Source of the DNA: Escherichia coli O157:H7
GTDB taxonomy: Bacteria; Pseudomonadota; Gammaproteobacteria; Enterobacterales; Enterobacteriaceae
Assembly (NCBI RefSeq): GCF_013167455.1
Contig: NZ_CP038328.1
Length of the DNA: 64,000 bases
Direction: 5' to 3' (one strand)
A program made the position numbers. This document shows, in pieces, positions 3,001 through 6,000 of this stretch (positions are counted from its first letter, which is position 1; each line of letters starts with the position of its first letter).

Positions 3001-6000
3001 ATGAAAAGGAAGGTAACCACACCACAGCATACCGTGATGGTGCGGGTATCTGGACCATCTGCCGTGGAGCCACCCGGGGGGATGGTAAGCCTGTTATTCC
3101 TGGCATGAAGCTGTCGAAGGAAAAATGCGACCGGGTTAACGCCATTGAGCGTGATAAGGCGCTGGCATGGGTGGAGAAAAACATCAGAGTGCCGCTGACC
3201 GAACCCCAGAAAGCGGGGATCGCGTCATTCTGTCCGTACAACATTGGCCCCGGTAAGTGTTTCCCGTCGACGTTTTACAGACGGATTAATGCAGGAGATC
3301 GAAAAGGTGCCTGCGAAGCGATTCGCTGGTGGATTAAGGACGGTGGCAGGGACTGCCGTATTCGCTCAAATAACTGTTACGGTCAGGTATCCCGTCGTGA
3401 CCAGGAGAGCGCGCTGGCGTGCTGGGGAATCGACAGATAAGCAGAATATTTTGCTGAAAAATGAGGTTTGCTTACATGGACGGATAACACGAAATCCTGC
3501 AAATTGGCAAAATGTAAGTGAATAAAGTCAAAGCAGTTGTTTAACACTCAGGCACCGTAATGATGCCTTTGTCATTTCTGCGCATCTCACGCGCATCTCA
3601 CAACACAGAACCTTTCAGGATGACCCTTGAGGATACCGGTTTGGCTGTCGGTGCCTTTCTGTGGGCTGGATTCCTGTGAGACAAGGTTCATCACTAAAAG
3701 GAAATAACCGATGAATATGATGGCCGTGCCGTTTCACGGCAACTCTCTTTATGTAGTTAACCATAATGGCGAACCATACGTTCCCATGAAACCTGTCGTT
3801 GCGGGGATGGGGCTGGCCTGGCAATCACAGTTGGCTAAGTTAAGACAGCGTTTTGCGTCAACTATAACGGAAATCGTTATGGTTGCTGAGGATGGGAAAC
3901 AACGCAATATGGTGTCCATGCCACTTCGAAAACTTGCCGGCTGGCTACAAACCATTAATCCCAACAAAGTAAAACCCGAAATCCGCGATAAGGTCATCCG
4001 GTATCAGGAAGAGTGCGACGATGTTCTTTACGAGTACTGGACGAAGGGTTTTGTCGTTAATCCCCGTAAAATGAGCGTGATGGAAGAACTCAACCAGGCT
4101 TGTGCTGACATGAAACGGGATAAAAACATTGCCAGTGTGTTTGCTACCGGGCTGAATGAGTGGAAACAGGTTAAAGCCGCGCATGTATCAAAAATCCGTA
4201 CGCTGGTAAATGAAGCGAATATGCTGATTGATTTTGTCCTGGCTGATACAGGCAAAGGGAAAATAACAAAGGCGGATTGATGGGGTGGCTAATGATATCA
4301 GATAAACTCATAACGCTGGTGAAGAGCCTCTGTGTACTTGCCGGCATTTCATTTTCACTAATGCTGGTTGCTCTTTTTCTTTCCATGGCCTGGATGGCGT
4401 TGACTTCGGCAGGGCTGGTGGGGTGAGCATAAACCGAATGCTTTCCGCGTTTACCGTTATTCTGCTGGTGGTCTGTGGTGCGCTTAGTCTGGGGCTGAAT
4501 CATTACCGCGATAACGCCATAACCTACAAAGAGCAGCGCGATAAAAAAGTCAGTGAGCTGGAGCTGGCAAATGCAACCATTACTGATATGCAGCAGCGCC
4601 AGCGTGATGTTGCTGCACTTGATGCCAGATACTCGAGGGAATTAGCTGATGCGAGAGCTGAAAATGAAACTCTGCGTGCTGATGTTGCCGCTGGTCGTAA
4701 GCGCCTGCGCATCAACGCCAACTGTCCAGGCTCCTTGCGTAAAGCCCCCATCACCTCCGGCGTGGATAATGCAACCGGTCCCCGACTGGCAGAAGCCGCT
4801 GAACGGGATTATTTCATCCTCAGAGAACGGCTGATGGCAATGCAGAAGCAACTGGAAGGAGCACAGGAATATATCCGTACCCAGTGTATACCGTGATGTT
4901 TTGTTACGAAGGTGTTACTGGTAACGTTAAGGTAATTTAACAAAGAGTCAGTTCCGGACTTTATAGTGTGCTCAGTTCATGGCCAAAAACGATTTCTGTG
5001 ATAAATATTTTGAATATTATTTACAGGTAAATGGAGTGGGGCACATGGATAGAAATATTACAATAGAGTATGAAGTATATGCCCGTATTGTATGGGCAGA
5101 GAAGGCAAAAACATGGTAATTCCGTGTGTTGCCATGATACCTGATTGGCAGAATTGTTGTTTGGTTTTGAGTATATAGTCAGCGTCTTTTGTTCGGTAAT
5201 TGCTCTTTCAATTAAAATGCCAGATATGATTTGCTTTTCTTTGTTGTTTAGTTTTTTTGTATATTATTTTTATTGTTTTTATATAATTAGTTTTTTATTG
5301 TTGTCTTATTAAGGACGGTAAATTCAGGATGGCAGTCTGTAGATAAACGGAGGTTACTTATGCTACATGATCACCTGGCAGAATGTCTGGAGAAAAAAGG
5401 ACTGTACCGGAGAGCAGCTGAACGATGGGCAAAAGTGATGGTACAGCTAAGTGATGACCAGAAAAGAAAAGTGGCGGCACAGAAACGAGCAGAGTGTTTG
5501 CGTAAGGCGCGCCGGACTCCGGTTTCACCGGTGAACCTGACCGAAATAAAACAAGCGGTCAACAGACTACATTCTGAGTTGGGAATGGGATTTGAAGAGC
5601 GGCGGGTATTCCGACGATATAAAGGGACAGGAGAACAGAATACGTCCGGAAACGCGCGGTCAAAAAAATGCTAAAAAATATCTGAGAGCGTTATTGCCTG
5701 TTACCATAAGAAAAAGCGACTTTAGTGGTCGCTTTTTGTGTCATATATAAGTCGTTTAAGTAAACCTGTCTGAACAGGTTCTCTGGTCGTGTTTGTCTTT
5801 GTTGGGTACAAATTGAGAATATTTTTCATTAATTAATCTTCTTCTGCAGGCTTCAATAACCCACGCTGAAAAATTTCCTGAACCTTTCAGATCAAGAGCG
5901 ATGTTAATTTGTTCAATCATCTGGTTTGGAAATCGGATGTTGCGGGTTGTTGTTCTGCGGGTTCTGTTCTTTGATGACATAATGTTGCCCCATATTCAGT

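Follow-up and report, generated by a model that had tools for sequence, protein, structure and literature searches.

A small open reading frame between ant and Rz

We analyzed a 64,000-nucleotide stretch of Escherichia coli O157:H7 DNA on contig NZ_CP038328.1 (the window), which is a Sakai Sp11-like lambdoid prophage: its segment 3441-4900 is 99.9% identical to E. coli O157:H7 genomes, and the counterpart in strain Sakai is prophage Sp11. Within the phage-21-type lysis cassette of this prophage, a small open reading frame (ORF) is situated between ant and Rz, and we consider it very probably a genuine protein-coding gene. The small ORF runs from ATG to TGA at 4280-4426 on the plus strand and translates to MGWLMISDKLITLVKSLCVLAGISFSLMLVALFLSMAWMALTSAGLVG (48 aa, or 49 aa if read from TTG 4277). 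On its 5' side lies ant (3711-4280, plus strand), which encodes a 189-aa antirepressor-like protein with P22_AR_N and ORF11CD3 domains; on its 3' side lies the Rz i-spanin gene (PF03245; plus strand, 4423-4896 if read from its probable start GTG 4423, while RefSeq places the start at ATG 4438), in which the gene of the Rz1 o-spanin lipoprotein is embedded (4649-4834, plus strand). The ant stop codon (TGA 4278-4280) shares one base with the small-ORF ATG (4280-4282; TGATG), and the small-ORF stop (TGA 4424-4426) overlaps GTG 4423-4425, which is in frame with Rz (GTGA). Coordinates and both overlaps are thus as proposed in an earlier reading made from the sequence alone.

The variable gap that houses the small ORF is anchored upstream by the R lysozyme gene (2907-3440, plus strand), which we read as encoding an R21-type signal-arrest-release (SAR) endolysin from its weakly hydrophobic, Gly/Ala-rich N-terminus. 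A segment of the plus strand following R (3441-3526) is homologous across all S21/R21 layouts compared (L085, L089, L093, L094), and the variable region begins at 3527. Upstream of R the cassette encodes a class II (phage 21 S-type) holin of 68 aa (2301-2507, plus strand), followed by DUF1327/YdfR (2509-2856). At 2289-2303 the holin gene reads ATA CAT CAG ATG, so that the dual-start motif has lost its upstream Met and only the 68-aa form is encoded, versus 71 and 68 aa in relatives; presence of the small ORF did not correlate with loss of the upstream holin start. The spacer between R and ant contains a 39-aa ORF (3560-3679) that matches phrog_16173 (E=3e-21) and is annotated in phage Lyz12581Vzw, not in Sakai.

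The sequence-only reading had called the small ORF unannotated. This applies to phage 933W, in which the 154 nt ant-Rz interval is left without annotation, and to many other Shiga toxin (Stx) phage records, but not to RefSeq, PHROGs or a published list derived from ribosome profiling (Ribo-seq). RefSeq names the protein ECs_5730 (YP_009502629.1) in Sakai, WP_000539795.1 in PGAP-annotated E. coli genomes and ORF50 in phage BP-4795, in each case as a 'hypothetical protein'. It matches phrog_4906, a family of unknown function, over its full length (E=2.6e-27; residues 1-48 against positions 2-49 of a 49-position profile), as does the divergent homologue P0055 (E=2e-19). There was no match in Pfam (E<=1), NCBIfam or PADLOC, and a profile search of the PDB came back empty. 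A profile search for distant relatives among 1.84 billion representative proteins returned 28 matches, all of which belong to the same narrow family or are fragments of its members. No publication was retrieved by locus tag or accession, and a comparative study of Stx-phage lysis cassettes makes no mention of the small ORF.

For XECs191, a paralogue in Sakai prophage Sp10, a Ribo-seq signal was reported in a list of small Sakai genes (Huecker et al., 2017, PMC5597208). In LB it reached 30.0 reads per kilobase per million (RPKM) in the transcriptome and 12.6 RPKM in the translatome, a ribosomal coverage value (RCV) of 0.43, and it is predicted to be an inner-membrane protein with 1 transmembrane (TM) helix (PMC5597208). 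We found XECs191 to be ECs_1966, situated between ant and Rz of Sp10. By full-length match, equal length and the same ant-Rz position, phrog_4906, WP_000539795.1, ECs_5730, ECs_1966, BP-4795 ORF50 and XECs191 represent one family. The Sakai Sp11 copy differs from the window copy by a single residue (V21 versus A21): codon 21, at position 4341, is GCC (Ala) in the window and GTC (Val) in Sp11 and every other 99.9% match, and the Ala21 haplotype occurs in no other sampled copy. The gene is already catalogued, and what we add is evidence of its reality and its context, not a function. New here are the quantified selection, the conserved internal start, the independence from ant and the shuffled mini membrane genes of the R-Rz gap.

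Selection, start codon and cassette layouts

Homologous DNA was gathered in three ways, none of which required an intact ORF: through loci encoding the ant protein, through loci encoding a neighbouring 60-aa protein (p60), and through contigs encoding divergent family members. Among 31 distinct haplotypes and over 42 codons, the ratio of nonsynonymous to synonymous change (omega, Nei-Gojobori) was 0.38 with a codon-bootstrap confidence interval of 0.26-0.56, while the other two sense frames of the same set gave 0.82 and 1.35; an earlier set of 19 haplotypes had given 0.44 in the small-ORF frame. The sequence-only reading had named an unconserved frame in homologous phage regions as what would refute it; this test, set beforehand, instead reveals purifying selection in this frame only. 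The one indel near the 5' end is of 3 nt and in frame, and the position of the stop is fixed. When the window is compared with other cassette layouts, homology resumes at 4295 and ends at 4426; because this block coincides with the limits of the ORF counted from an internal ATG, we regard it as coding evidence. Where the upstream DNA is unrelated, a strong Shine-Dalgarno (SD) sequence (AAGGGGT, AAGAGGT or GGGAGGA) is still found 5-7 nt 5' of the conserved ATG. The ORF is intact in 158 of the 171 sampled full-length copies, and 1 further copy was unscorable.

The internal ATG at 4292 is the sole start common to all homologues and opens a conserved core ORF of 44 aa (4292-4426, plus strand; MISDKLIT...GLVG). 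ATG 4280 is present only in ant-linked versions, and in haplotype L075 a TGA three codons after the upstream ATG cuts it off from the rest of the ORF, so that only the next ATG is usable. Forms from ant-less cassettes start with MSDKLIT, within one codon of window ATG 4292. In the window each start has an SD-like stretch of its own (4268-4288, plus strand; AAGGCGG at 4268-4274 before ATG 4280 and GGGGTGG at 4282-4288 before ATG 4292), and both pair with the anti-SD at an equal predicted -7.1 kcal/mol. Judged from these comparisons, the conserved product is the 44-aa form from ATG 4292, and the 48-aa form may also be made. Ribosomes leaving ant would restart at ATG 4280 or at ATG 4292 with the aid of the respective SD-like site, and the overlap of the small-ORF stop with the probable Rz start would hand translation on to the spanin gene. 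The GTG start proposed for Rz in the sequence-only reading draws comparative support from relatives L076-L078 and L085-L087, which carry ATG-GTG-AGC... at this place (MVSINR[I/M]LSAF). Translation must include the SINR segment, since L076-L078 have Ile for the downstream Met. In the other Rz type, the ATG in use aligns with window ATA 4429-4431. Rz therefore probably starts at GTG 4423 and not at the RefSeq ATG 4438.

Of 5426 complete E. coli genomes, 1720 (about a third) carry the core sequence; it occupies 4615 places in them, almost all on the chromosome, with as many as 11 in one genome. It is also found in 276 phage records, whose names are with few exceptions those of Escherichia, Stx or Shigella phages. 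Several cassette layouts were seen. The order R-ant-small ORF-Rz is that of the window and most Stx phages, and R-p60-small ORF-Rz that of 70 of the 80 loci picked by p60, which is the immediate upstream neighbour of the small ORF in 74 of them. A methyltransferase gene intervenes in L085 and L089 (R-p60-small ORF-methyltransferase-Rz), and L093/L094 as well as ST131 strains have R-p31-small ORF-p38-p28-Rz. In a different holin/endolysin system without Rz, the order is GH108 endolysin-(ant or p60)-small ORF-lipoprotein. In every layout the small ORF lies 3' of the endolysin gene and 5' of Rz or the lipoprotein gene. It is bound neither to ant nor to Rz. Conversely, ant without the small ORF was seen only at contig ends, in deletions (L008, L018) or in a different GH108 cassette (L082).

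In ant-less cassettes (L094 3900-4350; L089 3804-3986; L098 3546-3728) the same gap also houses further tiny ORFs with one helix each, namely p60 (phrog_1115/4493/3246), p31 (31 aa, phrog_6632), p38 (38 aa) and p28 (28 aa), of which p38 and p28 are paralogues of the C-terminal half of p60. p60, p31 and p28 share with the small ORF the endolysin-Rz gap, the size class and the single predicted helix, but they have no detectable sequence similarity to it, and either occurs without the other. Kinship of the small ORF with p60, p31, p28, the holin or the N-terminal (SAR-like) segment of the endolysin was rejected, as no similarity exceeded chance.

The compared cassettes display other features around the small ORF. 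In L085 (4191-4958) and L089 (4138-5073) a DNA methyltransferase gene has been inserted 3' of the small ORF and 5' of Rz, the two families represented being MethyltransfD12 and N6_N4_Mtase, and the L085 junction 5' of Rz (CAGGGGGTATGGTGAGC) resembles the small-ORF 3' end. Directly 3' of the endolysin, ant-less cassettes carry a strong terminator-like hairpin (AAAACCCCGTTTGTTGGCAGCAAGCGGGGTTTTGT; L094 3795-3835, L085 3786-3825, L098 ~3480-3520), only ~30 nt from the next start; the window has the ant module in its place. In GH108 cassettes without Rz, a 60-aa lipoprotein (lipobox LLVGC/LLAGC, phrog_7528) follows the small ORF or ant (L096 4167-4322; L082 3564-3746; L102 2637-2819) and could be a spanin-like or exclusion lipoprotein. 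In L008 (570-580) and L018 (~2360), a deletion has spared only 8 bases at the start of the small ORF, which now adjoin the C-terminal portion of a tail-fibre (J-like) gene followed by lom; the deletion takes out Rz and all packaging, head and tail genes and leaves a defective prophage.

The predicted protein and known lysis families

All six frames of the window together hold 245 ORFs of 40-70 aa. The small ORF, whose length alone is unremarkable among them, tops this set in hydrophobicity, with a grand average of hydropathy (GRAVY) of 1.63. The second most hydrophobic (55 aa, 5145-5312, GRAVY 1.62) lies in an AT-rich stretch just 5' of a PerC/Pch-family regulator gene (5360-5674), and its T-rich composition may suffice as the cause. 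Hydropathy analysis of the small ORF identified a sole strongly hydrophobic segment of 19-23 residues at residues ~16-38 (SLCVLAGISFSLMLVALFLSMAW; codons 4325-4393, plus strand), and from an alignment of 16 variants AlphaFold2 predicted one continuous helix from residue 2 to 43 (pLDDT 89.7). Of the 'one or two membrane helices' in the sequence-only reading, we therefore retain one and discard the second; the description of an almost wholly hydrophobic small membrane protein within a lysis cassette is borne out by the top GRAVY, the single predicted helix and the evidence for a real gene. Hydrophobicity is retained in all 25 protein variants and length is held at 43-49 aa; F25, W38 and L41 are invariant, and C18, V19, G22, S24 and V30 nearly so. 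The N-terminal segment is short with a net charge of +1 (D8, K9, K15), and the tail MALTSAGLVG comprises 10 uncharged residues. Following the positive-inside rule, with K9 and K15 on the N-terminal side and an uncharged tail in the window variant, the protein is most likely inserted in the inner membrane with its N-terminus in the cytoplasm and its tail in the periplasm.

We compared the small ORF with the known classes of phage lysis proteins. In holins the last TM domain is followed by a C-terminal domain that is hydrophilic and highly charged, whereas the small-ORF tail is uncharged, and the cassette already contains the S21-type holin. No Pfam holin profile matched at E<=1, and the sole holin-labelled PHROG match was phrog_13249 (E=0.018, 16 bits). 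An antiholin of the dual-start type (S107 or S21-71) was rejected, as the small ORF is a separate gene ~1.8 kb 3' of the holin; in dual-start antiholins the upstream start adds positive charge, while the two starts of the small ORF differ by G-W-L and no charge. Lambda S107, S21-71, T4 RI, P1 LydB, P2 LysA and the N4 lysis regulator are small, membrane-associated proteins that set timing and are not needed for lysis, and the small ORF matches antiholins and lysis regulators in position, size and dispensability. By this analogy the small ORF may act in the manner of those antiholins or regulators that have a gene of their own (T4 RI, P1 LydB or N4 type); searches of Pfam, PHROG and NCBIfam revealed no sequence similarity to any of the six.

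The Mu gp25 releasin (DUF2730/PF10805) is a 99-aa protein predicted to be N-out/C-in with a 73-aa acidic cytoplasmic domain (PMC9239132). Like the small-ORF product it is single-pass, encoded within a few genes 3' of a SAR endolysin and not a holin. We rejected a releasin because the small ORF lacks a PF10805 match and has at 44-48 aa no room for a soluble domain; it also occurs with a GH108 endolysin. An i-, o- or u-spanin was dismissed as well: only ~10 residues follow the TM segment, there is no lipobox, and Rz and Rz1 are present separately. Judged by its sequence, the small-ORF product is itself no holin, spanin or releasin. Type I toxins and other small inner-membrane proteins (Hok, Ldr, Ibs, TisB, ShoB) are similar in size and in having one very hydrophobic helix, but the toxins are stand-alone loci under antisense RNA, whereas the small ORF is packed into an operon and translationally coupled. 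A type I toxin was rejected since no Rfam family matched at E<=1 (3300-5400) and no toxin Pfam match was obtained, although the locus might have a novel antisense RNA. Finally, a relic or duplicate of the Rz N-terminal anchor was not supported by Smith-Waterman comparison with three Rz N-termini, which gave mostly shuffle noise and a best z=3.5 (one variant against lambda Rz, 16 tests).

Possible roles of the small ORF

The gene is under selection, is part of a late lysis cassette and encodes a single helix, and one of its paralogues is translated. A scan of the plus strand from the holin to Rz turned up no sigma-70-like promoter, which suggests that the small ORF is co-transcribed with S, R, ant and Rz/Rz1, probably from the Q-dependent late promoter. 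The peptide would then be made alongside the lysis proteins and insert in the inner membrane, where it may tune the membrane step of the pinholin, of the membrane-tethered SAR endolysin or of the Rz membrane anchor. We tentatively favour a dispensable inner-membrane accessory that acts at the time of lysis. Of the roles suggested in the sequence-only reading (antiholin, lysis modulator or superinfection-exclusion peptide), none is singled out by the sequence or by database matches.

A number of observations weigh against this interpretation. The small ORF shows the weakest constraint of the cassette (omega 0.06 for the holin, 0.09 for R, 0.15 for ant, 0.29 for Rz and 0.38 for the small ORF), and recurrent frameshifted alleles are present in 12 of the 171 sampled copies, including several of L116-L127 as well as L105, L118, L128 and L104. 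(The frameshifted L104 copy is within a plasmid fragment ridden with insertion sequences.) The Ribo-seq signal of XECs191 is weak and comes from uninduced cultures, with reads that are hard to assign among multiple copies. Variants with R39 lower the certainty of the N-in/C-out topology. The variability moment at 100 degrees is below the shuffle mean and conservation has no helical periodicity, so there is no conserved helix face and no sign of a dedicated interaction face. In the lambda-like cassettes of the K-12 prophages DLP12 and Qin, R abuts Rz with no small ORF between them, from which it follows that the small ORF is not needed for lysis; a named K-12 homologue was likewise discarded because neither prophage has such a gene. 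Because the small ORF accompanies both the R21-type lysozyme and GH108, whose endolysin/holin systems are unrelated, a specific partner within these systems is less likely. Lastly, the R-Rz gap also accepts plain cargo (ant, DNA methyltransferases), and position alone is thus no proof of a role in lysis.

That the small ORF is no gene at all, being a chance open frame in a spacer or owing its conservation to an antisense ORF or an RNA element, appears highly improbable to us. Short ORFs are indeed plentiful (the 245 counted above), 933W and many phage records leave the small ORF out, and across the core one antisense frame has no stop in any of the 19 haplotypes tested, with omega lowered to 0.53. 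Yet the lowest omega belongs to the sense frame, whose start, SD and stop are retained across unrelated flanks, and a paralogue has a Ribo-seq signal. The antisense ORF (110 aa, 4171-4503, minus strand) reaches into both ant and Rz; since homology with other layouts is lost beyond 4295 and 4426, this ORF is not conserved as a whole. We rejected it as a real gene, and the way its frame is registered against the sense codons probably explains its lowered omega. An RNA element was rejected for want of any Rfam match at E<=1 (3300-5400). We also judge it improbable, though less so, that the act of translating the ORF is what matters, with ribosomes being carried to Rz (or the methyltransferase gene) and the Rz start kept open while the peptide is a weakly constrained by-product. 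Such a bridge would account for the overlaps at both ends of the ORF (TGATG, GTGA), for the other junction type, in which the small-ORF stop is 8 nt 5' of the Rz ATG, for a conserved 3' end (GGTGGGGTGA) that is itself SD-like for the next gene, and for a peptide constraint that is the weakest of the cassette. It is at odds with an omega clearly below 1 in this frame only and with the maintained length, the hydrophobicity retained in all 25 variants and the invariant F25, W38 and L41. Moreover, L093/L094 and L103 have two further ORFs between the small ORF and Rz, a methyltransferase intervenes in L085/L089 and the GH108 cassettes have no Rz; retention of the ORF where coupling to Rz is impossible weakens the bridge.

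Some doubt is also warranted about a further possibility, which we nevertheless give more weight than a translation bridge: the product may be a cargo (moron-like) membrane peptide with no lysis role, directed at the host or at incoming phages (for instance in superinfection exclusion, lysogen fitness or membrane physiology), whose gene sits between R and Rz only because this gap tolerates insertions. Consistent with this, the gap houses evident cargo in varying combinations (ant, DNA methyltransferases of two kinds, further mini-ORFs), the small ORF is missing from K-12 cassettes in which R abuts Rz and is found with two unrelated lysis systems, and a paralogue is transcribed and translated at a low level in uninduced cultures, a signal that could nonetheless stem from a few spontaneously induced cells. 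The protein also evolves rapidly (nonsynonymous diversity, pN, of 0.157 versus 0.02-0.05 in neighbours), as expected in phage-phage or phage-host conflict. On the other hand, the small ORF has no promoter-like site of its own, is tightly packed and translationally coupled with late genes, and has no PADLOC match. In ant-less cassettes the intrinsic terminator hairpin lies too close on the 5' side to accommodate a promoter, so a quiet lysogen would not be expected to express the gene.

The reading as a dispensable accessory at the time of lysis matters most for Shiga-toxin phages, in which toxin release hinges on phage-mediated lysis: if it is true, a membrane factor that shifts lysis timing would alter both toxin output and phage yield. 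The small ORF is present in several copies per O157 genome, yet it was passed over in the 933W annotation and in surveys of Stx-phage lysis cassettes, and it represents a clean case of a well-supported bacterial protein of <50 residues without an assigned role. We regard it as unlikely, but worth stating, that phrog_4906, phrog_1115/4493/3246, phrog_6632 and the 28-aa paralogue together form an undescribed class of late inner-membrane modulators that set lysis timing or act on the pinholin, the SAR endolysin or the spanin anchors. If so, members of this class would be carried by roughly one E. coli genome in three, and among others by the Shiga-toxin phages, in which lysis timing governs toxin release.

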